Below are positions 1-23,598 of a DNA stretch of 64,000 nt, piece after piece (within the stretch, counting starts at the first letter, position 1; each line of letters begins with the position of its first letter). Source of the stretch: an uncultured Eubacteriales bacterium (GTDB lineage Bacteria; Bacillota; Clostridia; Lachnospirales; Lachnospiraceae); contig CAURSM010000023.1 of assembly GCA_963528005.1 (NCBI GenBank), positions 11,211 through 75,210 on the forward strand, in the 5' to 3' direction. The notes beneath the pieces were generated by a model. It was given only the letters and a program-made list of their open reading frames with translations, was not told where the DNA came from and did not search any database. Both the position numbers and the translations under genes were made by a program.

Positions 1-584
1 TAATTAAGACCAAGATGATCACTGGGAAGCAGTTCAAACACCTGCTTCCAAATGGAGGGCGTTGTCATTAAATTCTGTCCACCAGGCCACTGATCTTTCC
101 CAAAAAGCATGGGACAATTTTCAATGGCAATCTTTACATTCTCTTCCTCTGCCAGTTTTATAATTGGTGGCCATACCTCTTTTACCAGTTCCAGATTTTC
201 TTCGATACTCTTTTTCTGGTCCCTTCCAATGAATGTGGTCACCATTCCTACGGAGAGAATCCTGCTTGCCTTTATCATTGTCTTTAAGTGCTCTACAGCC
301 GCCTCTCCTTTCTTTTTATCTTCGTCGAGAGGATTGGGATAATAAGCCAAAGAGGAAATGGTGATTCCTTTTTTCTTTCCATAATTTTTTATATCATTGG
401 CGTAGGCAGGGTCCTTTACGACTCGTTCTACATCAATATGAGAGACTCCTGCGTAGCGTCTTTGCGCTTTCTCCTGAGGCCAACAGGCAACCTCTACACA
501 ATCAAAGCCCAGACTGGAGGCCAGATCCATCATCTCCTCAAAACTACTGCTATCCAGTATTGCGCTGACAAATCCCAGTTTCAT
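1..584 (-). CDS. sugar phosphate isomerase/epimerase (xylose-isomerase-like TIM barrel), N-terminal part; the gene runs off the left edge of the window
   Basis: Absent from the ORF track because it is truncated. Manual reverse-strand translation from the ATG at 582-584 (AGGAGG 6 nt upstream) gives MKLGFVSAILDSSSFEEMMDLASSLGFDCVEVACWPQ...KIAIENCPMLF. It starts 13 nt after the stop of the preceding gene. Confidence 0.75.
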   Translation of the reverse strand, partial: MKLGFVSAILDSSSFEEMMDLASSLGFDCVEVACWPQEKAQRRYAGVSHIDVERVVKDPAYANDIKNYGKKKGITISSLAYYPNPLDEDKKKGEAAVEHLKTMIKASRILSVGMVTTFIGRDQKKSIEENLELVKEVWPPIIKLAEEENVKIAIENCPMLFGKDQWPGGQNLMTTPSIWKQVFELLPSDHLGLN

Positions 585-597
585 ACTACCCCTCCTT

Positions 598-1563
598 TTA
601 CTCTGCAATCACCTTGTCAAAATCCTTATATTTTTGTAAATGCTCTTCCAGCCATTCTTTATTCTCTATGATTTTAGGAATGCAAACCTTTTTCATATTT
701 TCAATCTCCCAGTAATGGTCATAAAGACCTTCCATACTGGTCCTTGATATTTTCTTATCTTCCGGATTAAAATGAATCTTCATGGAACCATCACTCCACC
801 CCATGGTTCCTTTCACACCGCAGGTCACACAGTAAATGTCAGGTGCCTGATCCAGCATAAAGGATTTTCCATGGCATACCGGACAAACCCCTTCTTCTCC
901 ATACCATTCAACTTCATCGTACTCTTTTCCATAAGCCTCAGTTACTCTTTTTCCAAGCTCTCTGCACTGGCCCATAAGGTTATCATCAAACAGCGGATTG
1001 GCTCTCTGCCCCTGCCCATATGCATCCAGCTGACCAACCACCTTCATGTGGATGGAAGTGCCAAACTCAGTGATTGTAGGTAGACCTAAGGCTACCCAAT
1101 GAGGAGTATCTGCACCGCCAATCGACATATAGGCTACATACCGTTTCTTAAAATAACGAGGGTCTAAGAGTTCTTCACCGCTTTTTCCCTCTACGATTCT
1201 CTTTTTCTGAATTTCATCTAGGGCAGCGCGGTCATGGGAGGCACCAAAGCGATCAATGTAATTTTTAATCTGGCCCGTAGGTCCTACGGAAAATACAGGT
1301 GCTGCAACAATGATTCCATCTGCGTCCAGAATCTTTTCTACCAGCTTTTCATAATCATCCTTAATAATACAATGTACATTGTCTCCCTGATCCCGTTTCT
1401 GACTGCAAACTCCGCATCCCAGACATGGATCAATCCGCATCCCGATGGTGCGCACAAATTCCACCTCTGCACCTGCTTCTTTTGCTGCAAATAAAGCTTC
1501 CTTTACCATAATTTCTCCGCATTTCATGGCACGTCCGCCAAAATTAATTCCTAATACTTTCAT
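598..1563 (-). CDS. iron-sulfur flavoprotein-like / NADPH-dependent FMN reductase family protein with a C-terminal Cys4 zinc-ribbon-like extension (paralog 1)
   Basis: The flavodoxin-like N-terminus MKVLGINFGG aligns with the start of paralog 21243..22187. It has a compact Cys cluster (CLGCGVC...C) and a C-terminal CPVCH...CVTCG. I prefer the ATG at 1563 (AAGGAG 9 nt upstream) over the track start at 1584. Confidence 0.7.
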   Translation of the reverse strand: MKVLGINFGGRAMKCGEIMVKEALFAAKEAGAEVEFVRTIGMRIDPCLGCGVCSQKRDQGDNVHCIIKDDYEKLVEKILDADGIIVAAPVFSVGPTGQIKNYIDRFGASHDRAALDEIQKKRIVEGKSGEELLDPRYFKKRYVAYMSIGGADTPHWVALGLPTITEFGTSIHMKVVGQLDAYGQGQRANPLFDDNLMGQCRELGKRVTEAYGKEYDEVEWYGEEGVCPVCHGKSFMLDQAPDIYCVTCGVKGTMGWSDGSMKIHFNPEDKKISRTSMEGLYDHYWEIENMKKVCIPKIIENKEWLEEHLQKYKDFDKVIAE

Positions 1564-1587
1564 TCTCTTTTTCTCCTTTTTCATGGT

Positions 1588-2781
1588 CTAATATCGTTTG
1601 AAGCGTCCTACGTGTGTCAGACGGTCCGGAACAGAAGGAACTCTGCCTGTGGTACAAAGAATCACCTTTTCGGGGCATGCTTTCATACACCTTAGGCATT
1701 TGGTGCATTTTAATTCTTCAATCATATGGATATATCCAGGCAGTCCCTCAATGCAATCCTCAGGGCATTCTTTGATACAGCTTCCGCAGCCAATACAGCC
1801 TTGTGGAGCAATATAGATGTTAGTAAAAGCGGAACAGATTCCTTCTGCACATGTACGCTTTTTTATATGATCCACATATTCCTGTTCAAAAAGCCGGAAC
1901 GTATCCAGTACAAAGTCCGCTCCTGTATTGCCAACAGAGCATCTGGAGCTGTAAGTCATGGCTTCTACCAGTTCTTTCATGATCTCCATACTGCCCCATT
2001 CCCCATTTTTCATGGTAATTTCATGAATCCTGGTATGGAGCTGCAGTAGCCCCTCCCGGCAAAAGGTGCACTTGCCGCAGCATTCCCTGCGACCTGCGTA
2101 CAAGTTTTCTTCTGCTTCATGAAGCATACAGCACTTTTGGTCAAACACGGTTATTACACCCGTATCCTGGTTCCATATATCTGACTCAACAACTGATTGT
2201 TCCAGTTTGCCTGGTAAGTGCAGATGGGTTCCAAGCTGTATTGCTTTTATACTCTCAGGTTGCATCTCAATCAATTCGTTTAAAGGTGTGCCTGGTTTCA
2301 CCCATTTGGGATCACCATACCACTCCCCTTTTCCGCTTTTGTATTTTGTACACAGATAACATTCCGGTTCGTAAGTATCCTCTACTGTTTCGTAGAGTGC
2401 TTTTAGTATAATAAAGTTACAATAAAGGCAGGTATCAAGAATATCTGACGGAATCTTACCTAAATGCACCATTACTTCAACGTTAAATTCTGAAGCCTTT
2501 TTCTCTAATAATTCTTTAAGCTCCACCTTCTCCTCTGGAAGATAACATAAAAGTTTTACATCCTTCATAAGATAACCGGCAATTGCAAGTCCCTGCAAAA
2601 TCATCTCTGGGTTTTGCTCCATGATACGAAGAAGCATATGCTCCCTATCGTGATTATGAAGGCCGGTTACAATTGAAACGGTGTTCTTTCCAGTCGTAAT
2701 CCCAAAAGGAATTTCATTCTTTCTCACCCGTTCTATCAGGAATTCCCGTCCTGCTGCTTTCGCTTTTTGAACTGCATTCAT
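1588..2781 (-). CDS. NuoF/HydB-like iron-sulfur protein (N3-type 4Fe-4S motif plus C-terminal 2x[4Fe-4S] ferredoxin domain); FMN/NADH motifs appear degenerate
   Basis: ECCGKCTFCREG matches the NuoF ESCGKCxPCReG cluster motif. The C-terminus carries CIGCGSCIKECP and CTKCLRCMKACP. Its start overlaps the upstream gene by 4 nt. Confidence 0.7.
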   Translation of the reverse strand: MNAVQKAKAAGREFLIERVRKNEIPFGITTGKNTVSIVTGLHNHDREHMLLRIMEQNPEMILQGLAIAGYLMKDVKLLCYLPEEKVELKELLEKKASEFNVEVMVHLGKIPSDILDTCLYCNFIILKALYETVEDTYEPECYLCTKYKSGKGEWYGDPKWVKPGTPLNELIEMQPESIKAIQLGTHLHLPGKLEQSVVESDIWNQDTGVITVFDQKCCMLHEAEENLYAGRRECCGKCTFCREGLLQLHTRIHEITMKNGEWGSMEIMKELVEAMTYSSRCSVGNTGADFVLDTFRLFEQEYVDHIKKRTCAEGICSAFTNIYIAPQGCIGCGSCIKECPEDCIEGLPGYIHMIEELKCTKCLRCMKACPEKVILCTTGRVPSVPDRLTHVGRFKRY

Positions 2782-4862
2782 CGAACTTCCTCCTCCCAGT
2801 CAAAGCTGCCCCATAGTCTTGGAGGTGTGATCGTTAGCCTTAGATCGCACTGCAAGCATCTGTTTGCTTCCCCGCAGATATCCTCACTGCAGATTCCTTC
2901 ATGGTAAGGCAAAAAGCTGTTTACCCGCTTTTTATTTCCAAAGTTCTCAACTCTGCCAATGAAATCCTCCCGTTCTGTAGGTGGAGCAAGTATCTCACTA
3001 ATATCACCGTCCCCGCCTAGATACCGGTCAATGGAACCTGCGGCTTCCCGGCCAGAAGCAATTGCTTCTATTACAGATCTTGTTCCATAGACGACATCAC
3101 CAGCGGCAAAGATTCCATCAATCCCAGTTTTTAATGTTTTAGGATCTACTGTTATGTAACCACCAGGCGTAAGGGGCACTCCGCTTTCATTCTCTAGCTC
3201 AGGGCGCTGTCCCACTGCAAATATAACGGTATCGGCTTGAATGTGGTATTTCGAGTTTTCCTTTTTCGTAATAACTGGACGGCCCTCCTTATCAAAGGTA
3301 AAGGTTAAGACCTCCATGAACTCAACTCCATCTGCCTGTGATTCTCCAGTGATGCGCTCAAAGGTCAGGCCAGGATGCACTATGATTCCTTCTTCCATTG
3401 CCTGTGTGATTTCCTCTTCATCAGCCGGCATCTTTTCCCTGCTTTCCAGACAGGCCAGATGAACTTCTATCGCACCTAGACGTCTTGCTGTTCTTGCACA
3501 GTCGAAAGCCACATTGCCTCCTCCAAGAACAACCACTCTTTTTCCCATTCCAGTATCTTTATTTTCTGTGACAGCCTTTAGAAATTCGGTGTTTACCAGC
3601 ACCCCTTTCAGCTCAGCACCCTCTATGGGGAGCCGTATGCCTTTATGAGTCCCCAAGGCTAATAGCACAACCTCATATTCTTCTTTAAGAGCAAAAAGAT
3701 TTTCCACCTTTTTATTGCATTCCACCTTGATACCAATGTCCTTTATGACCTGCCATTCTTCCTCTATAATACTTACTGGAAGTCGGTATTCTGGTATTCC
3801 ATAACGAAGCATTCCCCCAGCCTTAGGGTTTGCCTCCAGTATAGTCACCTCGTGCCCTTGCTTTCTTAAATAATAAGCTGCCGTCATACCAGCCGGTCCT
3901 GCCCCTACGATACAGACCCTCTTTCCAGTATCTGGAAGCTGTTTTCCTTTTCCTCTCCAAAAGGTACCGGTATCGGCTTCTGCTGCAAACCGCTTGATTT
4001 CCCGGATGGACATGGCCTCATTGATCTCACCCCGTTTGCACTGCATTTCGCATACATGATTGCAGATGTAGCCAAGAACCTTTGGAAATGGCACTTTTTC
4101 CCGAATCACAGCCGCTGCTTCCTCAACTCTTCCCTCTCCCACCAGATAAATATAACGAGGCACATCTGTATGGGCTGGACAGGCGGCGCGGCAGGGTACA
4201 ATCATCTCTTCTCTGGTTTTCTCTGTTTCCATAAGAGAACGTTTGTCACGGATTGTCCCGGTTGGACAAACTTCCGCACATGCCTGACAAAACCGGCAGT
4301 CCTCATCCTTTAAAAGTTTATCATGAAGCGTACCAATGTAAGTCTCCATGTTTTCTTTGGAATACTTTAAAATCCCTACTCCTCTTAAATCCTTGCAGGC
4401 TCTGACACAGCGCCCGCAGAGGATACACCGGTTCATATCATGAGCTAGCAGGGGATTTTCTTCCACAGGACGAAACCCTTTTACCCTGTGCTTCATCCGT
4501 GTACTAGCTCCTCCTAGATATTGAATCAGGGTCTGCAGTTCACAGTTTCCGTATTTTGGACAGGTAGAGCAGTCTTCTGGATGACCTGCCAAAAGCAGAT
4601 CAAGGGCCAGGGAACGAAGCCTGCTTATTTTTTCGCTTTTTGTTTTGATGACCATACCGTCTCTTGGCTTTAAGGTACAGGAGGTAACCACCTGGTCCTC
4701 TCCTTCTACCTCTACAATGCATAACCGGCAGGAGCCGTGTTCTGGAAGATTGGGATGGTGGCACAAATGAGGAATGTAGATTCCTGCCTTAAGCGCCTCT
4801 TCCAACACACAAGATTCTTCCGGCACCTGAATTTTTATACCATCGATTGTTATTGCTGGCAT
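2778..4862 (-). CDS. multidomain Fe-S flavoprotein: NuoG/HydA-like N-terminal 2Fe-2S and 4Fe-4S domains fused to a GltD/NfnB-like NAD(P)H-dependent FAD oxidoreductase
   Basis: ITIDGIKIQVPE...SCRLC (2Fe-2S), HPEDCSTCPKYGNCELQ (NuoG His-Cys3 motif), CILCGRCVRAC and CRFCQACAEVCP, then VCIVGAGPAGMTAA and VVVLGGGNVAFD Rossmann motifs. The ATG at 4862 has GGAGG 5 nt upstream; the track start at 4874 overlaps the upstream stop codon. Confidence 0.8.
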   Translation of the reverse strand: MPAITIDGIKIQVPEESCVLEEALKAGIYIPHLCHHPNLPEHGSCRLCIVEVEGEDQVVTSCTLKPRDGMVIKTKSEKISRLRSLALDLLLAGHPEDCSTCPKYGNCELQTLIQYLGGASTRMKHRVKGFRPVEENPLLAHDMNRCILCGRCVRACKDLRGVGILKYSKENMETYIGTLHDKLLKDEDCRFCQACAEVCPTGTIRDKRSLMETEKTREEMIVPCRAACPAHTDVPRYIYLVGEGRVEEAAAVIREKVPFPKVLGYICNHVCEMQCKRGEINEAMSIREIKRFAAEADTGTFWRGKGKQLPDTGKRVCIVGAGPAGMTAAYYLRKQGHEVTILEANPKAGGMLRYGIPEYRLPVSIIEEEWQVIKDIGIKVECNKKVENLFALKEEYEVVLLALGTHKGIRLPIEGAELKGVLVNTEFLKAVTENKDTGMGKRVVVLGGGNVAFDCARTARRLGAIEVHLACLESREKMPADEEEITQAMEEGIIVHPGLTFERITGESQADGVEFMEVLTFTFDKEGRPVITKKENSKYHIQADTVIFAVGQRPELENESGVPLTPGGYITVDPKTLKTGIDGIFAAGDVVYGTRSVIEAIASGREAAGSIDRYLGGDGDISEILAPPTEREDFIGRVENFGNKKRVNSFLPYHEGICSEDICGEANRCLQCDLRLTITPPRLWGSFDWEEEVR

Positions 4863-4873
4863 AATCCCCTCCA

Positions 4874-6325
4874 TTATATTTTTTCTTTTATGTATTCCAC
4901 TGCACTGAGGGCTGCAATGCGTCCTGTATTAACCGCATAGCCCATGGAATTACCAGGCAGCAAAAACATGTAGCTGTCATCGTAGATGTTGCAGGAATCT
5001 GCACCTGCACAGTAAAGTCCAGGTACTGGCATATAATCGTTGTCGCAGGCCTCACAGTTTTCGTTGATTCGTATCCCTCCAACAGTTCCATATCCACCGG
5101 GGTGAATTGCTGCCGCATAATAGGGAGCCTTAAACAAAGGTCTTAAGTATTTGGGATCTTTAAAGAATTCAAGGTCTCTGCAATCACAAAAATAGTTATA
5201 ATTGTCTACAGTTTCTTTTAAATTGTCTGCATTAATCCCAGCTAATTGTGCCAGTTCCTCTATGGTATCAGCAATAAAATAATGTTTGCTTCCATTTTTC
5301 TTCAGCATCTGAATGCCTTCATAAAAGTCTGACACATCTGGATTGGGAGTTACCAGACTCGTCACGTCTACGCCATGGCTGATATAATAATTTACAATGG
5401 AACTATCTACGATTGAAAAACAGACCTTACCCCTTTGATGGTTTGCCACATTGGATAGGTAAGTGGTGTTTTGCATATAATCCTCATTCATAACTCTCTT
5501 ACCAAAAGAATTCACCAGCAGATTGGGCTGCTTCATAATATTGGTGACTCCACCTGTGGTGGGCTCCCCCCCTCCCAGATCACTGGCCATTTCAATTCTC
5601 ATCTGGGTCTGGTCCGCTCCTGCCTCCCAAGCCATTCTAAGTCCATCGCCCATTAACCCTGGGATGGCGAAGTTAAAGACATCCTTGCCATGCTCCAGCC
5701 CGGTATGCTCCTTAATCATATCCTTATTGGCTCCTGCTCCTCCGGTACAGATAATTGCAGCATTGCAGTTGACTCTAACCTCCTGCCCGTCAGGAGAAGT
5801 TCCAATCATACCAGTTACTTTTCCATGTTCCTTTATAATCTTTTTTACAGAATGCTCTAACAGGATTGTTACTCCAAGTTCCAGAGCCTTCTCATACATA
5901 GCTCGATTCATAAAAGATGCTGCCCTTGGTCCAATCCCTGTATCTGTCTTTACAATGTGCCAGGTTGCTTCTGACTGGGGGAAGTAGCGGAATGCGCCCT
6001 CAAACTCAACGCCCATATCCTCAAGCCACTGTATGGTTTCTCCAGACTGGGAAAAATACCGCTTTACTAGCCTGGCATCCACATTGTAATGGGTATAATC
6101 CATAAACATGTTAAACGCTTTTTCTACACTGATGTCTATCATCTGTCTTTTCTGATATAAGGTCCCGATTCCCAAAGGACCCATTCCCATATTGGCGGCG
6201 CCCCCAACTGTAGATGCCTTTTCAAGCACCACCACACTTGCCCCCAACTGTGCTGCCTGAACAGCAGCCGCCAGTCCGGAAGGGCCTGCCGCAATGACTC
6301 CGACCTGTGCTTCATACTCTTTCAT
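4874..6325 (-). CDS. FAD-dependent oxidoreductase of the fumarate reductase / urocanate reductase / 3-ketosteroid dehydrogenase flavoprotein family (FAD_binding_2); soluble
   Basis: N-terminal dinucleotide fold VGVIAAGPSGLAAAVQAAQLGASVVVLEK and C-terminal GLYCAGAD motif. No signal peptide or TM segment. It is the first gene of the operon, downstream of a 262-bp AT-rich region. Confidence 0.8.
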   Translation of the reverse strand: MKEYEAQVGVIAAGPSGLAAAVQAAQLGASVVVLEKASTVGGAANMGMGPLGIGTLYQKRQMIDISVEKAFNMFMDYTHYNVDARLVKRYFSQSGETIQWLEDMGVEFEGAFRYFPQSEATWHIVKTDTGIGPRAASFMNRAMYEKALELGVTILLEHSVKKIIKEHGKVTGMIGTSPDGQEVRVNCNAAIICTGGAGANKDMIKEHTGLEHGKDVFNFAIPGLMGDGLRMAWEAGADQTQMRIEMASDLGGGEPTTGGVTNIMKQPNLLVNSFGKRVMNEDYMQNTTYLSNVANHQRGKVCFSIVDSSIVNYYISHGVDVTSLVTPNPDVSDFYEGIQMLKKNGSKHYFIADTIEELAQLAGINADNLKETVDNYNYFCDCRDLEFFKDPKYLRPLFKAPYYAAAIHPGGYGTVGGIRINENCEACDNDYMPVPGLYCAGADSCNIYDDSYMFLLPGNSMGYAVNTGRIAALSAVEYIKEKI

Positions 6326-7640: not shown

Positions 7641-7657
7641 CCCATTTCCTCCCTGTC

Positions 7658-8044: not shown

Positions 8045-8073
8045 AATGATTTGGCTCCTTTTTATAATTTAAT

Positions 8074-16867: not shown

Positions 16868-17725
16868 TCATGTTTTCCTGTTCCAAAATTCTTTTATCAG
16901 TTTCACCTGATTGCAATATTCTGTCATACAGTGAATCATCATTAGTTTCATCTCTCTCATAGTTTTATCCCGGTCTGGCTCCGGCTTATAAATAAGCGTT
17001 CCATCTTTCTGAAAGGTCAGGCCATTCCAGTAATGAACTTTTAATTCCCGGCCTGTATCAGTTTCTCTTGTATGCTGGACCATGCACATAACTCTTTCTC
17101 TTGTTTGGATTTCATTTATCTCCTCTGCTTTCCCACCAAGTCCCATGAGAAAAATACATTGAGGATCACGCTTAGAGATATCTTCCTTATGGATTCCCAA
17201 ATGTTCAAAACAAAAGTTGTTCCAATTCATCTCCATCCGCATCATTCCCCAGCCAAAGTCCTCAATCGCACCGTCTTCAAAATGAATGAGATGGGCCCCT
17301 GGATACCACGTTTTATAAAACAGGTTACAGTTTTCGTCATTAGCAAAACCTTCCTGGTAGTTTTTAATCATCTCATCCGTAATTCCGTCCTGCACGATTT
17401 TAATTGCAGCAAAGCCGATTCCATTAGACAACACTCCATAGCCATTTTCCGGATACGTATTACTCCCATCAAGAAGTATGCTTCCGGCAAGCTCTGGCAT
17501 ATAACATTCCTCTGGTTTAAGCGGTCCATGTTCCACTGCCCTTACATGCTCCGGCTGAAGCTCTGCCAGCGGTTCATAATAATATTTTGCAAAAGCAGAT
17601 TCACTCTCTTTCTTCGTTAACCCTATTGTCATATTTCTTAAATCTTCTAAGGAAACCTCATTCATCATTCTCCCGCAGGTACGAGGTGATACCATTATTT
17701 TTCCCTTACTAAATACACAAGCCAT
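16868..17725 (-). CDS. phloretin hydrolase / 2,4-diacetylphloroglucinol hydrolase (PhlG) family protein, putative
   Basis: 285 aa, the size of Phy/PhlG. It has a C-terminal H-x3-E pair (IHCMTEY) like the second His/Glu zinc ligands reported for PhlG, plus upstream WYPGAHLIHFED. It is next to TetR/MFS genes and near a chalcone isomerase homolog. GGAGG lies 7 nt before the ATG. Confidence 0.55.
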   Translation of the reverse strand: MACVFSKGKIMVSPRTCGRMMNEVSLEDLRNMTIGLTKKESESAFAKYYYEPLAELQPEHVRAVEHGPLKPEECYMPELAGSILLDGSNTYPENGYGVLSNGIGFAAIKIVQDGITDEMIKNYQEGFANDENCNLFYKTWYPGAHLIHFEDGAIEDFGWGMMRMEMNWNNFCFEHLGIHKEDISKRDPQCIFLMGLGGKAEEINEIQTRERVMCMVQHTRETDTGRELKVHYWNGLTFQKDGTLIYKPEPDRDKTMREMKLMMIHCMTEYCNQVKLIKEFWNRKT

Positions 17726-17912: not shown

Positions 17913-18545
17913 ATGGAGGCAAAAAGTGATAAAAAGCCAGGGAAGGGGCTACTGACAAAGAAAACCATAGCTGATTCCTATCTTGCTATGATTCCTTTTA
18001 AAAAGTGGGATAAAATTACGGTTAAGGAAATTTGTGCTGAGGCAGATATTACAAGGGGTACCTTTTATCTATATTACAATGATATTTATGACTTGATGGA
18101 ACAGATAGAAGCATCACTTCTTTCAGAACTGACAAAGAGATATTCAACACTTACAGATGACGATTCCTCTGCCTCATTTTCGAGAGATCTCCTATCCTTT
18201 GATGTGACCCCTCCTGCTATGTTTTTGACCTGGTTTGATTTTTGTAAAGATTATAAACGGGAAATGATTGCTTTATTGGACCGAAAGAATGGGGATATGT
18301 ATTTTATAAGTAAATTAAAGCATTTCTTATTAATCCATATCAATAACATCATGGATCGGGACGGATTACCTAAGGATGGACTCCGAACTCATTTTTCAAA
18401 GATATTTTTGGAGCTTCATTTAATGGCAGCTCAGACCTGGTTAGAGCAGGGAGACGACCAGTTTTTATCAACAGATGAAATCGTAAATCTTTTAAATACC
18501 ATGCGGGTTGGAGCCAGATATTTGTCCTACCGTAAACTTGTCTAG
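17913..18545 (+). CDS. TetR/AcrR family transcriptional regulator
   Basis: N-terminal HTH (ITVKEICAEADITRGTFYLYYNDIYDL). It is divergent from the hydrolase gene. Confidence 0.8.
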   Translation: MEAKSDKKPGKGLLTKKTIADSYLAMIPFKKWDKITVKEICAEADITRGTFYLYYNDIYDLMEQIEASLLSELTKRYSTLTDDDSSASFSRDLLSFDVTPPAMFLTWFDFCKDYKREMIALLDRKNGDMYFISKLKHFLLIHINNIMDRDGLPKDGLRTHFSKIFLELHLMAAQTWLEQGDDQFLSTDEIVNLLNTMRVGARYLSYRKLV

Positions 18546-18604: not shown

Positions 18605-18634
18605 AAAAAAGCTACAGACATTTCTGCCTGTAGC
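18605..18634 (-). terminator. Rho-independent terminator ending the long minus-strand unit
   Basis: On the minus strand, GCTACAGGCAGAAATGTCTGTAGC is followed by TTTTTTG. This is the first clear hairpin plus U-tract downstream of 28961. Confidence 0.7.
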
Positions 18635-18655
18635 CTAAATAAAAACATACTTTTT

Positions 18656-19870
18656 TTATGGATTTTTAATAAGCGCTGCAATGATAATTCCCACAACGAT
18701 AGCGCCCAGTAAGAAAAATAACGTACTAAAATAAGAACCACTAGAATCGTAGAGATAACCAGCAATGGTACTTCCAAAGGAAGCAAAAAATAAATTCATA
18801 TTTAGCACTGAAAAATTAATACTATAATTTTTTCTGCCATAAAAGGAACCTACAAAAGCTGAATTAGTCGTAGGTACGCCACCGTAGGCAAGCCCTGTTA
18901 ATATAAATCCCATAATCAGGATATAAAAGCTTCCGGTGCTTAATGATAAGATCAGAGATATAATGGCACTGCAAAACAAAACTTCATTGATGATCATTGT
19001 TTTTACACGGCCAAACCGATCAAACATTCCACCAAATATGACGCGTCCTATTCCATTAAAGATGGAGATCAATCCTACAACCGTGGCTATGGTCCCTGCA
19101 GAAGCCTCCGGCTTCACGGAAATAGCGATTGCTCCAGCCTGTGATATAACCGCAAGACCAGCAGCGCACAAAAGAATTGCCCATATGAAATAAAGCCAGA
19201 AGGAACTTCTTTTAATCATTTGTCTAAAATTCATTTCCTCAACGTTTACAATTTCACTATTATTAATTTCTTTCGTCATTCTTTCTGTTAAAGCCGCTGT
19301 CTCTTCGGCATTTGGCTTTCTAATAAACAACGCACTCAATAGCATAACGATAAAAAGAATAATTCCAAACAGTAATAAAGACCTTCGAAAGCTTTCTCCA
19401 GTTCCTGTAAAAGCCTGATATACCTTACCAATCAAGAAACTACCAAATCCAAATCCCATAAGAAGAATTCCTGAAATCAGACCCGGTTTATCCGGGAAAA
19501 ACTTTGTAACAGCGCCCATAATGGAATTATAGGCAATTCCAGATGCGGTTCCAGAAAGCACACCGTATCCAATGTAAAGGCCTATCAGTGAATTTGTTTT
19601 TGATGCGATAACAAATCCTCCTAAAAACAAAAACGCAGAAACAACCATATTTATTTTAACATTTACTTTTCCTGATAAAAGACCAGCAAAAAAACCTCCA
19701 AGACAAAAAAACATCATACAGATGGTAAAGGTCATGGAAAGCTGCGCACTGCTCCAATCAGTGAAGTATGCAGAAACCGGCCTGGAAATAACACTCCAGG
19801 CATAAATAAGTCCTGCAAATAATAACACCAGTACTCCCATTGCGGCATAAAGCCATCGCTTGTATTTCAT
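18656..19870 (-). CDS. MFS transporter (oxalate/formate antiporter-like subfamily)
   Basis: 404 aa, 12 TM segments, 15 nt downstream of the CHI homolog. Confidence 0.75.
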   Translation of the reverse strand: MKYKRWLYAAMGVLVLLFAGLIYAWSVISRPVSAYFTDWSSAQLSMTFTICMMFFCLGGFFAGLLSGKVNVKINMVVSAFLFLGGFVIASKTNSLIGLYIGYGVLSGTASGIAYNSIMGAVTKFFPDKPGLISGILLMGFGFGSFLIGKVYQAFTGTGESFRRSLLLFGIILFIVMLLSALFIRKPNAEETAALTERMTKEINNSEIVNVEEMNFRQMIKRSSFWLYFIWAILLCAAGLAVISQAGAIAISVKPEASAGTIATVVGLISIFNGIGRVIFGGMFDRFGRVKTMIINEVLFCSAIISLILSLSTGSFYILIMGFILTGLAYGGVPTTNSAFVGSFYGRKNYSINFSVLNMNLFFASFGSTIAGYLYDSSGSYFSTLFFLLGAIVVGIIIAALIKNP

Positions 19871-19885: not shown

Positions 19886-20722
19886 CTATCTTCTGGGCAT
19901 ATATCCACGGTACTGGCTATAAGCATCACAGGTCGGAACATCCTTGATGAAAATGCCTCTAATTTCAAATCCTGGTTTTAAATACGGAAATACATCACCT
20001 TCAGCTGCCCAGAAAGGTGCTTTAATTTTATCAGAAGTTTCTATGGCGATACGATGCCACGCCGTCGGACCTGTAAACCACATTTCAACAACTCGTCCCA
20101 TAGGGCAATTATTAATTGTTTGGTCTACTTTACTGGTAAGAATTCTTGTACAGCAGGAATTCTCAATAAAGAATGGAAATACCTCTTCAAACAACCACTT
20201 ATCACCATCTTCCTGGGATACTCCATCCGGATAGGATAAAGCAAAGTTCCAACAGTAATTAGGCCCATCTTCTAACATACGGCCAACTCCCTTAATATCT
20301 TCTTCCCACCACATAGGGCAAAATGCAAAGACAAATGGCGGGCAGCCATTGTTACCACCTGAACTGCGCCCTGCATCTCCAGTCAGCATTACTTCGCTTA
20401 CAGTCTGAGGAACAGTACCTTGCCACTTTAAGACTTCAATGGGGGTATATTCCTGAAAGGCTTTTACCTTCAAAGCTGCATCCATAATATCGACGTTCCA
20501 ATGGTGTTCGGTCAACTGCATACGCACCGTTCCAAATCGTTCTCCACCTGGAGGCACTGGAAGAGCATCAAAAAAAGCATATTTACCACAATAAGGCTCA
20601 AACTGAGCAATACTTTCTGGAATATGATGATAATACAACCAATGATGCAGTCTATGCCTATATTCTTCATCAATTACATCTACATATATAAAACTTCTCA
20701 TAGGATTGAATTCGATTGCCAT
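19886..20722 (-). CDS. chi: bacterial chalcone isomerase (Eubacterium ramulus CHI family) homolog
   Basis: It shares blocks that I recall from E. ramulus CHI: FNPMRSFIYVD, HIPES (the position of the catalytic His), QFEPYCGKYAF, RMQLTEHHW, FVFAFCPMWWEED, KWLFEE, FPYLKP and C-terminal YRGY. The length of 278 aa is similar to that enzyme. Confidence 0.8.
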   Translation of the reverse strand: MAIEFNPMRSFIYVDVIDEEYRHRLHHWLYYHHIPESIAQFEPYCGKYAFFDALPVPPGGERFGTVRMQLTEHHWNVDIMDAALKVKAFQEYTPIEVLKWQGTVPQTVSEVMLTGDAGRSSGGNNGCPPFVFAFCPMWWEEDIKGVGRMLEDGPNYCWNFALSYPDGVSQEDGDKWLFEEVFPFFIENSCCTRILTSKVDQTINNCPMGRVVEMWFTGPTAWHRIAIETSDKIKAPFWAAEGDVFPYLKPGFEIRGIFIKDVPTCDAYSQYRGYMPRR

Positions 20723-20723
20723 G

Positions 20724-21236
20724 TTAATTTCCCCTTTTTAACTTTCTCCGTAATAATATTTTTGTAAAATAATCCACCCCACACCCCACGTACCATACTC
20801 CTACAGCCATGGCGATTCCAATTTGAATCGGCAAGGTTTTTTCCGCCTGTATGTCTTTGAAAGACATCAGACTTAAACCGATGGCCCATCCGCATAACCA
20901 GGAAGGTAGAAATACAAAGTGTTCAAATATAGAAGCGATAACAACTGCCAACGCACCTAAAACTGCTAATGTAACAAACAACTCCAACGTTTCATTCCAA
21001 TTCACTACTTCCATGATTATTAAAGAAAGGACCGCCCATAAATTGCCAAGCCAAAAGCCTGCGGTAATCTTTACGCCATCCTCAATCCGGTTGCCATTTG
21101 TTGAGTACAGCCCCGCACAAATCAATGCCACGGCTCCTGTTTTAATTCCCAGGTGTGGAGCAGATACCGCCCATAAGGGCGGTAAAAGTCCAATAGCAAG
21201 AGCCAAAACTAATTGTTCTTTCTTTTTTTCATCCAT
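20724..21236 (-). CDS. small polytopic membrane protein (possibly DUF1097-like)
   Basis: 170 aa with 4-5 hydrophobic helices. It lies 1 nt upstream of chi and 6 nt downstream of the FMN reductase paralog. Confidence 0.5.
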   Translation of the reverse strand: MDEKKKEQLVLALAIGLLPPLWAVSAPHLGIKTGAVALICAGLYSTNGNRIEDGVKITAGFWLGNLWAVLSLIIMEVVNWNETLELFVTLAVLGALAVVIASIFEHFVFLPSWLCGWAIGLSLMSFKDIQAEKTLPIQIGIAMAVGVWYVGCGVDYFTKILLRRKLKRGN

Positions 21237-21242
21237 TTTTTA

Positions 21243-22187
21243 TTACACACGCTCACATAAAAAAGAAGAGGCAATGGAATCCATATAGCGTTTTTTACGA
21301 AGTTTAAATTCTTCTGTCTGGCGTACTTTTGCAAATGCACCTTCCATACGCTGAATATCATCTCCATGAATAAACTTTCCTGGGATTGTGTCATGAGCGT
21401 GTTCTAATTGTTCTACTGGGAAAACAAATTTTGTCTTTCCATCTTCAATCACAACATCTCCCACCATTCCGCATAAGCCACAGATAGCATTTGTAGATTC
21501 GTTATCCAGATAAAAGAGCTTATTATGACAATGAGGACATAATCCTTCTTCTCCCTGATAAGCAGCATTCTCTACATCTTTTGCGGCATTTGCTAATTTC
21601 ACACCAATTTTATGTACTTCAGCCAAACGTACGTCATCCATAATGAGCTCTTTCGCCCATGGATACCAGGTATTATCAATAATCTTCCACATTGGGGTGA
21701 GAGCCTGCATCGCATGTTCGCATTGAACTCTGGTTCCCCAGTCAGAACCTCCTACTCCCATGTAAGAAATCACTTTATCCTTTAGAATCCTTGGATCGAT
21801 TGCCTTTCCACCATTCTCCTCTGCTATCTTGGAACCAATGATGTTGTTTCCACGATCCATTCTAGGTCCGAAACGATCCATAATAGTATGGAATAGGCCA
21901 GAAGCCCCTTCCTCAAAGATAGGATCAGATATAATAATTCCATCTGCATCAAGCATTTTGTCTAAAAGCCAGTCAAAGTCATCCTTTATGACACACATAT
22001 TTCCTTTTCCACCTAATAGTGTCTTTACACAAGCACAACAACCGGTGCAATGCTTGATATCCAGTGATGACATTCTAATAAACTCTACCTCAGCACCTGT
22101 TTCCTTCGCTCCCATTAACGCTTCCATACAGATAGAATCATTTGTTCCGTTCTTTGTTCCAAAAGAAATACCTAAAACCTTCATCAT
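21243..22187 (-). CDS. iron-sulfur flavoprotein-like / NADPH-dependent FMN reductase family protein with C-terminal Cys4 extension (paralog 2; candidate flavone-reductase-type ene-reductase)
   Basis: MMKVLGISFG flavodoxin-like start, CTGCCAC...C cluster and CPHCH...CGLCG. It is colinear with 598..1563 over its full length. Confidence 0.7.
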   Translation of the reverse strand: MMKVLGISFGTKNGTNDSICMEALMGAKETGAEVEFIRMSSLDIKHCTGCCACVKTLLGGKGNMCVIKDDFDWLLDKMLDADGIIISDPIFEEGASGLFHTIMDRFGPRMDRGNNIIGSKIAEENGGKAIDPRILKDKVISYMGVGGSDWGTRVQCEHAMQALTPMWKIIDNTWYPWAKELIMDDVRLAEVHKIGVKLANAAKDVENAAYQGEEGLCPHCHNKLFYLDNESTNAICGLCGMVGDVVIEDGKTKFVFPVEQLEHAHDTIPGKFIHGDDIQRMEGAFAKVRQTEEFKLRKKRYMDSIASSFLCERV

Positions 22188-22209
22188 AATCTCCTTTTTC
22201 GTGTAAATA

Positions 22210-23598
22210 TTAATTTTCTTTCATTTTTAAAATATAAAATCCATCATCAAGGGCATCAATGATGATATAACCTCTATCATCTACCACAATATCCTCTGTT
22301 ACCGCCATACGAGGCCCCGGAAAACCTGGGAAAAATGATTCCTCTGGTTTTTTATTGGGATTTGGTGGAATAAAGTAAGCAATTTCCTTGATATAATATG
22401 GATCTGATACATCATAAACCCTAAGTCCTGCATGGAAATAACAGCAGTACACACGGTCTCCCCTCTGCTCCAGCCATGGTTTCTTATCCATAGGTTCATG
22501 TAGGTTATGAGGACCAAATGGGCCTGCCACTCCAAGTCCAGCTACATTAAAGTTTGGATATGGGAAGTCCTTTGGAACTTCCGGATATGGAAACTCAGCA
22601 ATCAAAGTAGGCTGTTTGGGGTCACTGACATCGATCATGTGTATGTTGTTTAATGCCTGAGCTCTTTTTATCCTATCTGGTGTAAAGAACTGGAAACGTT
22701 CTCCTTCGTTTTGACATACGACCAGATCACGCCCTGGCAGCGGGACTGCTGTATGGGTTCTTGCCCCTGATAACTCACTGGAGAATGCAGGCATCAGCGA
22801 TAATTCTCCCAGGCATTTCGGTCTTTCTACGTCCTGAACATCAAGAACTACCAGTCCTGCTCCGCCATAGCCGCAGTAAGCGATTCCATCACGAACAAAT
22901 GGCGGTCCGTGAAGCCAGCCTTTATCCATAAAGGAAGGAACGTGAGCGGCACCTGGATCAAAGTTTCGATCTGGATATCCGTCTGCATACTGATCTGGTC
23001 TCCACCAGCGTCCTGCTTCCACTGGACTCGTGGGGTCTTCAATATCAATAATGCGGTAAATCATTCCTTCAAAGCCTACGCAGTCACTGGATAAATGAAC
23101 ATATCTTCCACCGTTATACTGAAAACGGTGCACTCCAAGTACATGCTTTAATCCACAATCCCAATAGCCCAAAAATTCCGGATTCTCTGGGTCATTTTTC
23201 AGACTGTAAATTCGAATTCCTGCCTCACATTTTATATCAGCAAGTTTTGCCTGATCCACAAGGGCTCCTGGTCCGCTGCCGCAACTCATAGCTACAATCA
23301 TCAGATCGTCGGCAATCTGAATCTTGGGAGATGTAGTTGTTGGATACTCCTTCGGATTAACGAGTTCAAAGTGCTTCACAAATTTGGGATCATAAGGATC
23401 TGTTACATCACTAATCATGACCCCGTTCTTTGTTCCGCCAAAGCAGCAGCCATACAAATAATACTTACCTGCTGATGTTTTATAAAGGGCCATCTGGAAC
23501 ATCCCGCAGGTTCCATCTAAATCACTAAAAGAGCAAACTTCCAAATTTTTAATAAAACCGTTGTTTCCCTCTCCCTTAGCATAAAAATTATCTTTCAT
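22210..23598 (-). CDS. cytoplasmic LVIVD-repeat beta-propeller protein, function unknown
   Basis: 462 aa with repeated hydrophobic-strand plus D motifs (LMIVAM, RIIDIEDP, LVVLDVQD, IHMIDVSDP, LRVYDVSDP, YIIIDALDDG). No signal peptide. The start is 12 nt after the buk stop, with AGAGG as SD. Confidence 0.6.
   Translation of the reverse strand: MKDNFYAKGEGNNGFIKNLEVCSFSDLDGTCGMFQMALYKTSAGKYYLYGCCFGGTKNGVMISDVTDPYDPKFVKHFELVNPKEYPTTTSPKIQIADDLMIVAMSCGSGPGALVDQAKLADIKCEAGIRIYSLKNDPENPEFLGYWDCGLKHVLGVHRFQYNGGRYVHLSSDCVGFEGMIYRIIDIEDPTSPVEAGRWWRPDQYADGYPDRNFDPGAAHVPSFMDKGWLHGPPFVRDGIAYCGYGGAGLVVLDVQDVERPKCLGELSLMPAFSSELSGARTHTAVPLPGRDLVVCQNEGERFQFFTPDRIKRAQALNNIHMIDVSDPKQPTLIAEFPYPEVPKDFPYPNFNVAGLGVAGPFGPHNLHEPMDKKPWLEQRGDRVYCCYFHAGLRVYDVSDPYYIKEIAYFIPPNPNKKPEESFFPGFPGPRMAVTEDIVVDDRGYIIIDALDDGFYILKMKEN

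Follow-up and report, generated by a model that had tools for sequence, protein, structure and literature searches.

Fcr/EnoR enzymes carry out the step from chalcone or flavanone to dihydrochalcone, and E. ramulus degrades quercetin via alphitonin. CHI and FLR are adjacent in E. ramulus, and in Clostridium sp. CF012, CHI, Phy, OYE and FLR lie inside 7 kb. The genes flr, fcr and phy are consecutive in C. butyricum (PMC11868195). A sequence-only reading of the DNA studied here had described such genes as mostly dispersed in the studied organisms, which is only partly true. The conversion of quercetin through taxifolin and alphitonin to 3,4-dihydroxyphenylacetate is known chemistry, for which the open-access literature gives no enzymes, and 3,4-dihydroxyphenylpyruvate is a "hypothetical intermediate" only (PMC11170127). 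The electron chain of FLR "remains to be explored" (PMC7862272).

In the window, the whole 64 kb stretch of DNA analysed, genes for flavonoid stripping and breakdown span about 30 kb of a gut-type Clostridia genome. All the co-localised flavonoid genes named earlier were confirmed at their positions. The island is larger than the 23 kb or so first described: it begins beyond the left edge of the window, where it continues with AP_endonuc_2 and GFO genes, and ends at about 30.1 kb. The same arrangement recurs in the Lacrimispora MAG L005 (protein identity 79-98%), so the co-localisation is not due to chance. Family memberships, gene order and gene-set conservation were observed directly, as was the absence of an OYE-type gene. 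We believe that the region may be a polyphenol-catabolic island of mosaic build, in a Lacrimispora-like Clostridia genome, with three separately regulated units, namely a flavonol operon, a Phy cassette and a dgp unit with an FAD reductase. This explanation as a whole stands evenly between right and wrong, and the earlier interpretation is partly supported.

The first unit is a LysR-linked 12-gene operon on the minus strand, running from 28961 down to 18656, which would serve flavonols. It opens with a 235-aa P-loop NTPase (28254..28961; Walker A GEAGCGKS; weak CbiA/MinD/ParA-type match), followed by a four-subunit 2-oxoacid:ferredoxin oxidoreductase (25627..28276; Pfam POR, TPP_enzyme_C and POR_N). 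The oxidoreductase comprises the delta ferredoxin (28031-28276, two CxxCxxCxxxCP motifs, with 28243 or 28234 as the probable true start), alpha (26934-28019, VorB subfamily match of 426.8 bits, over the cut-off of 399), beta (26186-26923) and gamma (25627-26172) subunits. Next come a phosphate butyryltransferase-family phosphotransacylase, Ptb (24709..25614; Pfam PTA_PTB 152 bits; NCBIfam 324 bits, under the equivalog cut-off of 399), a butyrate-kinase-family acyl kinase, Buk (23611..24693; NCBIfam butyrate kinase subfamily, 474 bits), and a 462-aa cytoplasmic beta-propeller of the "LVIVD" family (22210..23598; AF2 pLDDT 87, pTM 0.91). The flavone/flavonol C2=C3 ene-reductase FLR (21243..22187; PDB 7d38, 1e-136) shares 64% identity with the crystallised enzyme. 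After it come a DUF1097 membrane protein (20724..21236; Pfam 74 bits), the bacterial chalcone isomerase CHI (19886..20722) and an MFS_1 transporter (18656..19870; Pfam 96 bits) that is conserved in L004, L005, L009-11 and L052. CHI, which converts flavanone to chalcone and flavanonol to auronol, was upheld by Chalcone_N (166 bits) and PDB 3zph/4d06 (3e-87), and its His33 is invariant. No intergenic gap exceeds 23 bp, and the last gene is followed by a strong terminator-like hairpin with a 12-bp stem and a T-run (18609..18636, minus strand). The divergent LysR regulator (29222..30118, plus strand; Pfam HTH_1 and LysR_substrate) had been placed within the first 23,598 bases and lies outside them. 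CHI had been taken as embedded in a flavone/chalcone module; this was revised, as it sits with the oxidoreductase, Ptb, Buk and the conserved propeller.

This gene set, LysR included, recurs in rearranged order in several bacterial families, in loci of Lacrimispora, Clostridium drakei, C. muellerianum, Intestinibacter, Lachnospiraceae, Limivicinus and Faecousia. A LysR gene accompanies the LVIVD-FLR-CHI module elsewhere as well: it is adjacent and divergent in C. difficile and L004-L010, and L154 and L155 have it ahead of the module on the same strand. IOR-type 2-oxoacid:ferredoxin oxidoreductases are the arylpyruvate-specific kind. Within 10 kb, 21 of 80 CHI-anchored loci carry a 2-oxoacid:ferredoxin oxidoreductase (12 VOR-type, 9 IOR-type), and the P-loop NTPase accompanies the VOR-type genes in 12 of 12. 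L046 has the order Ptb-IorA-IorB-Buk-CHI, with IorA at 691 bits, over the equivalog cut-off. Of 21 Ptb genes, 18 lie with such an oxidoreductase. A control set of 65 loci with Phy-family anchors (643 kb) contained none of these genes. LVIVD homologs adjoin CHI in 25 of the 80 loci and in each of four homolog contexts that were chosen independently, C. difficile included, and occur together with OYE-type genes in only one of the CHI loci. DUF1097, a conserved module member with a possible permease role, occurs in 15 of the 80 as well as in C. difficile, L154 and L155.

Beyond the family functions of FLR, CHI and DgpABC, we infer every substrate and reaction. In the proposed route, FLR would reduce flavonol to flavanonol, CHI would contract flavanonol to an auronol of the alphitonin type, and the propeller would hydrolyse the ring-opened 1,2-diketone form of the auronol to phloroglucinol and arylpyruvate. 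The oxidoreductase, Ptb and Buk would then convert arylpyruvate to arylacetate, CO2, ATP and reduced ferredoxin, and the reduced ferredoxin could in turn be the so far missing physiological electron donor for FLR. The propeller is a candidate metal-dependent auronol (alphitonin) C-C hydrolase; the one strong match, in structure and profile searches alike, is the binuclear-metal propeller hydrolase Sb-PTE (5hrm, best PDB fold match 6e-18, profile match 6e-6). Two observations count against this role: E. ramulus has no propeller within the available flanks, and the IOR-type CHI loci also lack it, so CHI and the oxidoreductase can occur with a different enzyme, perhaps Phy. The name of the VOR type refers to branched-chain substrates, which counts against an arylpyruvate role. 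We infer that this flavonol route would not require Fcr/EnoR.

The dgp unit, on the minus strand, would remove C-linked glucose. It opens with an MFS_2 glycoside-type transporter (9200..10585; Pfam MFS_2, 296 bits), which has an equal position in the Dgp clusters L150 and L152. The DgpA/B/C assignments at 6588-9177 were upheld by PDB and Pfam matches: an ortholog of the C-glycoside 3''-oxidoreductase DgpA (8074..9177; GFO/IDH/MocA; PDB 7xr9 DgpA 4.9e-172, 9m3d DgpA1 1.4e-143), a DgpB-like beta subunit (7658..8044; Pfam CGDB PF19906, 135 bits, 9e-40) and a DgpC-like alpha subunit of C-glycoside deglycosidase (6588..7661; AP_endonuc_2), the latter two genes overlapping by 4 bases. The DgpC-like protein matched PDB 8qvc (9e-72), 7bvs (2e-46) and 7bvr/7exz (2e-41), of which 8qvc and 7bvr/7exz are C-glycoside deglycosidase alpha subunits. 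Regulation is probably of AraC/GH39 type. On the plus strand lie two paralogs, an 814-aa GH39-like protein (10821..13265; Glyco_hydro_39 114 bits) and a putative AraC-HTH/GH39-like sensor-regulator (13183..15615; Glyco_hydro_39 91 bits); such regulators recur beside Dgp clusters, with homologs in L150 and L152. Both had been called AraC regulators, and only the second has a solid helix-turn-helix (HTH_18, 69 bits against 21 bits, under the cut-off, in the first). Downstream of the dgp genes, the unit would continue with a VprA-like FAD reductase and two proteins that make up an NAD(P)H/Fe-S electron-input module, then a second FLR-type enzyme and finally a pair for sugar salvage. The candidate salvage pair consists of a xylose-isomerase-like TIM barrel protein (AP_endonuc_2, 3..584, minus strand, 75.5 bits), truncated by the window edge and 306 aa at full length, and a GFO/IDH/MocA oxidoreductase beyond the edge (continuation in L001).

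The Phy cassette would be TetR-controlled and consists of a divergent Phy/PhlG-family C-C hydrolase (16868..17725, minus strand) and a downstream MFS_1 transporter (15672..16826, minus strand; Pfam 119 bits), of which L089 and L094 carry 53-61% orthologs within their OYE-reductase operon. The TetR-like regulator (17913..18545, plus strand), divergent from the Phy-like gene, has a marginal HTH (TetR_N 23.5 bits, cut-off 24); in L089-96, orthologs at 50-54% identity likewise lie divergently to Phy-like genes. The Phy/PhlG assignment held at family level (DAPG_hydrolase Pfam 47.8 bits, cut-off 22.7), although the protein is divergent, as a canonical Phy, that of L018, reaches 254 bits with this model. 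Profile matches include M. abscessus phloretin hydrolase (5xey, 1.4e-8) and PhlG (3hwp, 1.4e-5), and H145, H265 and E269 are invariant. The protein is presumed to be an acylphloroglucinol (dihydrochalcone) hydrolase.

By profile search, none of the ORFs in the 64 kb window encodes an Oxidored_FMN (PF00724) protein. E. coli FadH and a true OYE-type reductase taken from a sister locus, used as tblastn queries, revealed no OYE-type remnant, and no OYE-type Fcr/EnoR occurs in the 5 kb left of the window edge. The reported lack of such a gene in the island is therefore confirmed. An uncharacterised island gene had been suggested as its substitute. Because the CHI operon fits an Fcr-free flavonol-auronol route, part of this missing-enzyme puzzle is removed; for the rest, credible candidates are present. 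The best of them is a soluble 483-aa FAD_binding_2 reductase (4874..6325, minus strand). Vinylphenol reductase VprA is its best curated family in 6/6 variants tested (NCBIfam NF053717, 279 bits, cut-off 600), and the fumarate-reductase residues H365/R381/R402/H504/R545 are replaced by S/K/Q/Y/L. Adjoining it on the same strand is a 698-aa fusion (2778..4874) of a NuoG/HydA-type N-terminus with [2Fe-2S] and [4Fe-4S] sites and a GltD-like FAD/NAD(P)H domain (Pfam Fer2_4, NADH-G_4Fe-4S_3, Fer4_20 and Pyr_redox_2; NCBIfam PRK12771 NAD(P)-binding, 431 bits), which is proposed as the NAD(P)H electron-input subunit. The 397-aa electron-transfer subunit (1588..2781, minus strand) joins a NuoF C-terminal [4Fe-4S] region to a 2x[4Fe-4S] ferredoxin domain (Pfam NADH_4Fe-4S, 59 bits, and Fer4 families), and its pairing with the 700-aa protein gene is conserved in L097, L150 and L152. 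The second FLR-type enzyme of the unit, FLR2 (598..1584, minus strand; 328 aa; PDB 7d38, 1e-41), has a flavodoxin-like FMN domain and a C-terminal CxxC...CxxC extension; it is 34% identical to the island FLR over the full length, with invariant Cys motifs common to both. The two FMN reductase paralogs reported earlier are thus both full-length FLR-family proteins, but their flavone C2=C3 step had been merged with the distinct Fcr/EnoR step.

On comparative sequence grounds, we propose the FAD reductase and its Fe-S/NAD(P)H partners as the best non-OYE candidate for converting chalcone or flavanone to dihydrochalcone. The complex would replace OYE-type Fcr and so supply the Phy-like hydrolase with substrate, by the same electron logic (NAD(P)H, flavin, Fe-S, catalytic flavin), though assembled from separate, unrelated parts. 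The operons of L085/86 (AraC|FAD-reductase-ferredoxin-Phy-FLR), L087/88 (FAD-reductase-ferredoxin-Phy, adjoining DgpBC) and L097 (DgpC-GFO-FAD-reductase-...-708aa-399aa-Phy) mirror flr-fcr-phy of C. butyricum, except that the FAD enzyme takes the place of the OYE one. Phy-like loci carry an FAD reductase or an OYE-type enzyme, never both, in the flanks seen. Counting against this reading, the Phy-adjoining FAD reductases of L085-88 share only 26-31% identity with the window enzyme, and the window FAD reductase lies 10.5 kb from the Phy-like gene in a different transcription unit. Orthologous FAD-reductase/Fe-S modules (at least 70% identity) are found mainly inside Dgp clusters of Lachnospiraceae CAG:215 without Phy, FLR or CHI genes in the surrounding 10 kb, and therefore the substrate could instead belong specifically to C-glycoside metabolism. 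Another part of this genome may carry a canonical OYE-type Fcr, since in the sister MAG L004 a 641-aa Oxidored_FMN+Pyr_redox_2 gene lies 1.4 kb from the same operon.

With the FAD reductase complex as the proposed Fcr substitute and the CHI operon as the proposed flavonol route, genome comparison points to particular uncharacterised enzymes both for the Fcr-type reduction and for the conversion of flavonols to phenylacetic acids, a route so far unsolved.

All ORFs of at least 80-100 aa over the 64 kb were translated and scanned against Pfam, and key ORFs were also compared with NCBIfam and the PDB sequence set. At 90% identity, the proteins cluster with those of Lacrimispora sp., L. aerotolerans and Clostridium sp. 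12(A). The results showed that the co-localised flavonoid genes described in the sequence-only reading are real and not a chance grouping, and that its assignments of DgpA/B/C (C-glycoside deglycosylation proteins), CHI and Phy hold on profile and PDB searches. It had drawn the island too narrowly, at about 23 kb; the island extends beyond both of those ends, and the LysR gene that was placed inside them lies outside, at 29222-30118, divergent from the 12-gene operon A. Two AraC regulators and a TetR had been listed; the HTH of one of the AraC-type proteins is weak, and so is that of the TetR. Its statement that there is no OYE-type Fcr/EnoR (chalcone/flavanone to dihydrochalcone reductase) here stands: the 64 kb window and the 5 kb to its left contain no Oxidored_FMN (PF00724) protein, with or without a fused Pyr_redox_2 domain, and no remnant of one. 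Its interpretation of the locus was partly right, and part of the puzzle of the missing Fcr is removed, since the flavonol route that we propose for operon A would need no Fcr. A degraded Fcr pseudogene was rejected: when E. coli FadH and an OYE-type protein from the sister locus L004 were run against the whole window in tblastn, the GltD-like protein was the sole match, at the level of a Rossmann fold.

The locus is a known kind of flavonoid catabolic cluster in a new form; past the family level, we infer the reactions of all its units. The farthest-reaching reading, which we hold to be possible but less than probable, is the following. Operon A would encode a complete, self-powered flavonol fermentation, in which a new family of propeller metallohydrolases cleaves auronols and which yields arylacetates, ATP and the ferredoxin donor of FLR; and a VprA-like FAD reductase with its NAD(P)H/Fe-S module would be a non-orthologous replacement of the OYE-type enzyme in C-glycoside-degrading Lachnospiraceae.

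Outside the island, positions 44939-51278 hold a PTS cluster of beta-glucoside type (EIIA, a GH2 enzyme, EIIBC, a BglG-type antiterminator and a GH1 enzyme), which could act on O-glycosides and has no obvious link to the island. Positions 33660-37266 and 42784-44706 hold a TetR with a ferredoxin-nitroreductase fusion, a metallophosphoesterase and a soluble glucose/sorbosone dehydrogenase-like protein, then a prismane/CO-dehydrogenase-family protein.

The dgp unit has the order MFS_2-DgpA-DgpB-DgpC, followed by a 483-aa FAD_binding_2 protein (the FAD reductase, 4874-6325), a 698-aa NuoG/HydA-N plus GltD-like protein (2778-4874), a 397-aa NuoF-C/ferredoxin protein (1588-2781), an FLR paralog (598-1584), and AP_endonuc_2 and GFO genes. 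DgpA (8074-9177), by orthology the GFO/IDH/MocA 3''-oxidoreductase of the system, finds the solved strain PUE protein (7xr9) at 4.9e-172, and the next non-Dgp GFO member only at 1e-29. DgpB (7658-8044) matches CGDB (PF19906) with 135 bits, and DgpC (6588-7661), a xylose-isomerase-like TIM barrel, matches the solved deglycosidase alpha subunits 8qvc, 7bvs, 7bvr and 9m3b. The DgpB and DgpC genes are adjacent with a 4-base overlap, and the pair has the features of a C-glycoside deglycosidase. The unit resembles the dgp cluster of Dorea sp. strain PUE in its DgpA ortholog, in the adjoining, overlapping DgpB (CGDB) and DgpC and in the MFS glycoside transporter upstream. However, it adds the VprA-like FAD reductase, two Fe-S electron-transfer proteins and the FLR paralog, which are outside the described DgpABC mechanism, and it has aglycone-degrading genes within the same 30 kb. 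Left of window base 1 (L001, 15742-17719), the dgp unit ends with AP_endonuc_2 (306 aa) and a second GFO/IDH/MocA protein (348 aa), and GH62 and GH127 are next. This pair may recycle the sugar released by DgpBC.

The best NCBIfam family of the FAD reductase is VprA (NF053717), with 279 bits against an equivalog cut-off of 600, which makes VprA the closest family and the enzyme not a member. Five relatives from other loci had the same top match. VprA of Lactiplantibacillus plantarum, also a FAD_binding_2 protein, was the best-scoring curated family for the FAD reductase and all relatives examined, but the scores (188-337 bits) were far under 600, and the island enzyme differs in having dedicated Fe-S/NAD(P)H partners. 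In the alignment with flavocytochrome c3 (1d4d), H365, R381, R402, H504 and R545 are replaced by S, K, Q, Y and L. We take His365, Arg402, His504 and Arg545 to be the substrate-binding and catalytic residues of the soluble fumarate reductase of Shewanella. These changes at key Arg/His positions, together with VprA as the best curated family, led us to reject a fumarate or urocanate reductase.

In other genomes, relatives of the FAD reductase stand beside Phy-family genes. In L085/86, an AraC gene is divergent from FAD reductase-ferredoxin-Phy-FLR-like; in L087/88, FAD reductase-ferredoxin-Phy adjoins DgpBC; in L097, DgpC-GFO is followed by a FAD reductase 71% identical to that of the window and, further on, by 708-aa, 399-aa and Phy genes. 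In L089-96, a TetR gene is divergent from MFS-Phy, and an OYE-type reductase operon, which holds an ortholog of the window's Phy-adjacent MFS, is 7-8 kb away. The two reductase types did not occur together in any of these Phy-like loci. The chalcone has the same 4-hydroxystyryl C=C bond as VprA reduces. Because of the Phy-linked contexts and this VprA-type bond, the FAD reductase complex is ranked the best candidate for the Fcr role, with dihydrochalcone formation as its proposed reaction. An flr-fcr-phy operon was reported in C. butyricum (PMC11868195), and the L085 operon is its counterpart, with the FAD enzyme and a ferredoxin replacing Fcr. The complex shares with OYE-type Fcr/EnoR the proposed role and the electron logic of NAD(P)H-flavin, Fe-S and catalytic flavin. 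It differs in its unrelated fold (FAD_binding_2, not the OYE TIM barrel) and in being split over three polypeptides, and its role is predicted from genes.

A C-glycoside-specific substrate for the FAD reductase is a serious rival. It is possible, though we doubt it, that a canonical OYE-type Fcr elsewhere in the genome performs the Fcr step and that the complex serves C-glycoside metabolism, for example by reducing the DgpBC sugar enone (2-hydroxy-3-keto-glucal), or C-glycosyl flavones or chalcones before deglycosylation. The most consistent neighbours of the orthologous module are Dgp clusters, including some that have no Phy, FLR or CHI nearby, and the FAD reductases next to Phy in L085-88 share only 26-31% identity with that of the window. 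In Lachnospiraceae CAG:215 and Anaerobium acetethylicum, orthologs of the FAD reductase and of its 700-aa and 400-aa partners come right after DgpC/GFO within the Dgp cluster, where a ROK glucokinase and a SnoaL-like protein are also present. An Oxidored_FMN plus Pyr_redox_2 gene lies 1.4 kb from the FLR-CHI operon in L004, and the 69 kb covered belong to a genome whose contig alone is 715 kb; the window's genome may encode Fcr elsewhere. On the other hand, a preprint describes DgpA chemistry as redox-neutral when 3-oxo-glucose is recycled (bioRxiv 10.1101/816074), with no need of a further reductase for the sugar, and a hydratase/reductase-type pair (AP_endonuc_2 and GFO) is already there. 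Phy-like genes are also found in the operon of the FAD reductase module (L097) and in its ferredoxin-linked versions (L085-88), and the closest curated family acts on C=C bonds of 4-hydroxystyrene type, not on sugars.

A SnoaL-like (NTF2-fold) protein stands beside the FAD reductase in other Dgp clusters (L097, 3635-4593; L150, 11597-11941; L152, 1-171) and is absent from the window. It could be an isomerase standing in for CHI. A nitroreductase-family protein is also present in L097.

CHI (19886-20722) matches PF18232 (Chalcone_N) with 166 bits and 3zph/4d06 at 3e-87 over residues 4-277. It is 46% identical to the CHI of E. ramulus and belongs to the bacterial (E. ramulus) type. Its H33, which we take to be the catalytic residue of bacterial CHI, is invariant in our alignment A1. 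FLR (21243-22187) matches the crystallised FLR 7d38 at 1e-136 over residues 2-305 with 64% identity, and the FLR paralog matches it at 1e-41 over 8-295 with 32-34% identity. Both show the full-length similarity of the FLR family, including the C-terminal extension required for activity (Yang et al. 2021). By family assignment, FLR is a predicted flavone/flavonol C2=C3 reductase. The paralog (34%) should not be presumed active, because a second FLR paralog of F. plautii was reported to be inactive on apigenin (PMC8398226). All nine aligned FLR-family proteins keep the cysteine set C47-x2-C50-x2(3)-C53...C65 in the flavodoxin-like domain and the set C217-x2-C220...C236-x2-C239 in the C-terminal domain. 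Both sets resemble Fe-S and Zn/Fe sites; metals and cysteines go unmentioned in the paper on the FLR structure (PMC7862272). According to the same paper, FLR does not depend on NAD(P)H; a flavin reductase was supplied in the assays, and of the electron chain the authors say that it 'remains to be explored' (PMC7862272).

FLR and CHI belong to operon A, which consists of 12 minus-strand genes from 28961 to 18656 with intergenic gaps of at most 23 bp, closed by a terminator with a 12-bp stem. The order is P-loop NTPase; oxidoreductase delta, alpha, beta and gamma; Ptb; Buk; LVIVD propeller; FLR; DUF1097; CHI; MFS. The oxidoreductase alpha subunit matches the VorB subfamily with 426.8 bits against a cut-off of 399 and is of the VOR type; the beta, gamma and delta subunits were recognised with scores under their equivalog cut-offs. 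Promoter scans were uninformative, with fewer matches than in shuffled sequence. The P-loop NTPase (28254-28961) has the Walker motif GEAGCGKS and a weak MinD/ParA/CbiA match, and it is present in 12 of 12 VOR-type loci. It may be a maturation or cluster-insertion factor.

Species-representative genomes were scanned with CHI as the anchor, which gave 80 loci whose contents were compared by tblastn. FLR-family genes accompanied CHI in 56 loci, the propeller in 25, the VOR-type oxidoreductase with the P-loop gene in 12, and an oxidoreductase of the IOR type, the arylpyruvate-specific kind, in nine. Of the 21 loci with Ptb, 18 also had an oxidoreductase. In L046, ordered Ptb-IorA-IorB-Buk-CHI, the IOR scores exceed the equivalog cut-offs. 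OYE-type reductases occurred in 8/80 CHI loci, and together with the propeller in one only. The large VOR-type loci also had the propeller in 10 of 11 cases; none was found in the IOR-type CHI loci, or in E. ramulus within the available flanks. The gene set of operon A recurs in rearranged order in Lacrimispora, C. drakei, C. muellerianum, Intestinibacter, Lachnospiraceae, Limivicinus and Faecousia, and the accompanying genes were absent from 643 kb of control sequence, made up of 65 loci with the Phy family as anchor. In the reverse check, CHI adjoined all four propeller homologs (three chosen independently and that of C. difficile). Three of them (C. difficile, L154 and L155) have the LysR/FLR/CHI/DUF1097/propeller module; the fourth, L153, has CHI adjoining without FLR, DUF1097 or LysR beside it.

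The AlphaFold model of the 462-aa propeller (22210-23598) has a pLDDT of 87 and a pTM of 0.91. Its only strong structural match in Foldseek was 5hrm (6e-18, TM 0.64/0.60), with generic WD40 propellers at about 1e-9, and its only significant profile match was Sb-PTE (6e-6); the fold is seven-bladed as in Sb-PTE. Sb-PTE is the phosphotriesterase of Sphingobium sp. TCM1, a seven-bladed propeller with a binuclear Mn centre, and this likeness points to a metal-dependent hydrolase. However, the identity is about 15-16%, and the context is flavonoid catabolism, not organophosphate hydrolysis. Many His, Glu, Asp and Asn residues are invariant and could include metal ligands of the central cavity, among them H157, E177, H230, H282, E298, E300, H320, D323, H364, H367 and E368. 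The protein has no signal peptide. More than 2,000 homologs were found, with the C. difficile copy conserved. In the open-access literature, no account was found of LVIVD, of alphitonin-cleaving enzymes or of FAD-dependent chalcone reductases of gut bacteria.

In Clostridia, the oxidative branch of aromatic amino-acid fermentation uses arylpyruvate:ferredoxin oxidoreductase, and the acyl-CoA is then converted through acyl-phosphate to arylacetate and ATP. Operon A resembles this branch in its VOR/POR- or IOR-type oxidoreductase, phosphotransacylase, acyl kinase and arylacetate product class (PMC11170127). Its genes, in contrast, are co-operonic with FLR and CHI, and the arylpyruvate is proposed to come from cleavage of the flavonol C-ring, not from transamination. 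Whole cells convert quercetin through taxifolin and alphitonin to 3,4-dihydroxyphenylacetate and phloroglucinol; Goris and Braune merely postulated 3,4-dihydroxyphenylpyruvate as the product of alphitonin cleavage (PMC11170127), and a 2026 review lists no enzyme for this cleavage (PMC13515148). We propose that FLR and CHI would perform the first two steps, from flavonol to flavanonol to auronol, and that the propeller would hydrolyse the ring-opened 1,2-diketone form of the auronol to phloroglucinol and arylpyruvate. The propeller was chosen because it is the conserved, unassigned enzyme of the module, has an Sb-PTE-like fold and profile match, and lacks a signal peptide. The ferredoxin-dependent 2-oxoacid oxidoreductase would convert the arylpyruvate to arylacetyl-CoA, and Ptb and Buk would convert this to arylacetate and ATP; the loss of one carbon in the decarboxylation would agree with the known C6-C2 products. 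The reduced ferredoxin of the co-operonic oxidoreductase would be the obvious candidate donor for FLR, possibly via the invariant cysteine motifs. Ptb and Buk as the end of a phloroglucinol pathway were rejected: the window has no phloroglucinol reductase, cyclohydrolase or triacetate-lyase-type genes, and a 2-oxoacid oxidoreductase has no place in that pathway (PMC10470551).

We consider it unlikely that oxidoreductase-Ptb-Buk is a general fermentation module for branched-chain or aromatic 2-oxoacids which merely shares the promoter, with the propeller acting as a chalcone hydrolase (giving phloroglucinol and hydroxycinnamate), a flavanone/flavanonol epimerase or a binding protein. Such a module would suit the match of the alpha subunit to VorB, a 3-methyl-2-oxobutanoate subfamily, and the many LVIVD-FLR-CHI modules without an oxidoreductase nearby (C. 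difficile, L154, L155, L007, L008); the IOR-type loci also have no propeller, and the metal ligands are only putative. However, two non-homologous oxidoreductases, VOR- and IOR-type, fill the Ptb/Buk/CHI context in 21/80 CHI loci and 0/65 controls, which is unlike a coincidental neighbour, and the propeller keeps company with the large VOR-type loci in all but one of 11. Flavonols are known to end as phenylacetic acids, one carbon being lost on the way, as would be expected if an arylpyruvate were oxidatively decarboxylated (PMC11170127).

In the C. difficile chromosomes L002/L003, at about 8.8-14.0 kb of the locus, LysR is divergent from propeller-FLR-(74 aa)-DUF1097-CHI, with no Fcr, Phy or dedicated oxidoreductase adjoining. 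The propeller cluster that includes C. difficile covers more than 1000 contigs. Identity between the window and C. difficile is 84% for the propeller, 73% for FLR, 63% for DUF1097, 50% for CHI and 40% for LysR. The propeller is thus far more conserved than its operon neighbours (L002, L052 and L054), and the gradient is similar in L052 and L054. In Clostridium sp. CF012 (L018, 271-18724), a more complete, 'canonical' cluster holds Ptb-IorA-IorB-(223 aa)-Buk, two sigma-54 activators, DUF1097, CHI and a 251-aa LysR-like ORF, and continues with a canonical Phy, an OYE-type reductase, DUF1097, an FLR-like gene and a conserved 224-aa protein of unknown function. This indicates that the link of IOR/Ptb/Buk to CHI also occurs where Fcr is present.

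The Phy-like hydrolase (16868-17725) matches DAPG_hydrolase with 47.8 bits against a cut-off of 22.7, and its family profile reaches the M. abscessus phloretin hydrolase 5xey (1.4e-8) and PhlG 3hwp (1.4e-5), which places it in the Phy/PhlG family; direct sequence search against the PDB gave no match. Among residues that might form a Zn-binding His/Glu set, H145 lines up with M. abscessus H123, and H265-x3-E269 does not vary within the family. It is a divergent member, as the canonical Phy of L018 scores 254 bits on the same model, and the homology search returned 41 relatives, none named Phy and without the Phy of E. ramulus. With the MFS gene it forms a TetR-linked cassette whose arrangement is kept in other genomes. 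The site downstream of the operon A MFS differs between close relatives: TetR-Phy follows directly in the window; in the sister genome L004 (12158-16879; proteins 80-98% identical to those of the window), MFS, a 641-aa Oxidored_FMN/Pyr_redox_2 protein and PucR come right after the operon; in L005 (12130-15478), MFS and an alpha-L-rhamnosidase are inserted ahead of TetR-Phy. These differences indicate that the site is a variable cassette region. The island shares FLR, CHI and a Phy-family hydrolase with the FLR-CHI-EnoR/Fcr-PHY pathway of Flavonifractor plautii, Eubacterium ramulus and Clostridium butyricum, and partial clustering of such genes has been reported (PMC7862272, PMC11868195, PMC10470551). 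It differs in having no OYE-type Fcr/EnoR, a divergent Phy-family member, a CHI wired to oxidoreductase, Ptb, Buk and propeller, and a second FLR paralog with the FAD_binding_2 complex. A loose accretion of independent polyphenol cassettes giving only partial conversions (C-deglycosylation, flavone reduction) and no integrated pathway is improbable. In its favour, three or more units have regulators of their own (LysR, TetR, AraC-type), cassette content differs at the same site (MFS, OYE and PucR in L004; inserted MFS and alpha-L-rhamnosidase in L005) and the Phy-like enzyme is divergent; against it, the cassettes are chemically consecutive, from C-glycoside to aglycone to reduced or opened ring to hydrolysis, and the same combinations recur in unrelated lineages (Dgp, FAD reductase and Phy in L087 and L097; FLR, CHI, propeller and oxidoreductase in many loci).

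Quercetin and other flavonols rank high among the polyphenols that people consume, and dihydroxy- and hydroxyphenylacetic acids are gut products recovered in humans; the enzymes between alphitonin and the phenylacetic acids, and the natural reductant of FLR, are gaps (PMC11170127, PMC7862272, PMC13515148). Together with its relatives, the locus offers a short list of candidates that can be cloned to fill these gaps, namely the propeller, the VprA-like reductase complex, and Ptb and Buk with the oxidoreductase of VOR or IOR type. The candidates address three questions, namely auronol cleavage and phenylacetate formation, the electron donor of FLR, and a non-OYE route to dihydrochalcones. Present screens use FLR, Fcr, CHI and Phy only, so organisms like this would be scored as incomplete; sequence markers from the locus would improve metagenomic prediction of flavonoid-degrading capacity. 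That C. difficile also has the propeller-FLR-CHI module gives another lead. If the proposal is true, a dedicated ferredoxin oxidoreductase, phosphotransacylase and kinase would make the phenylacetic acids seen in human urine.
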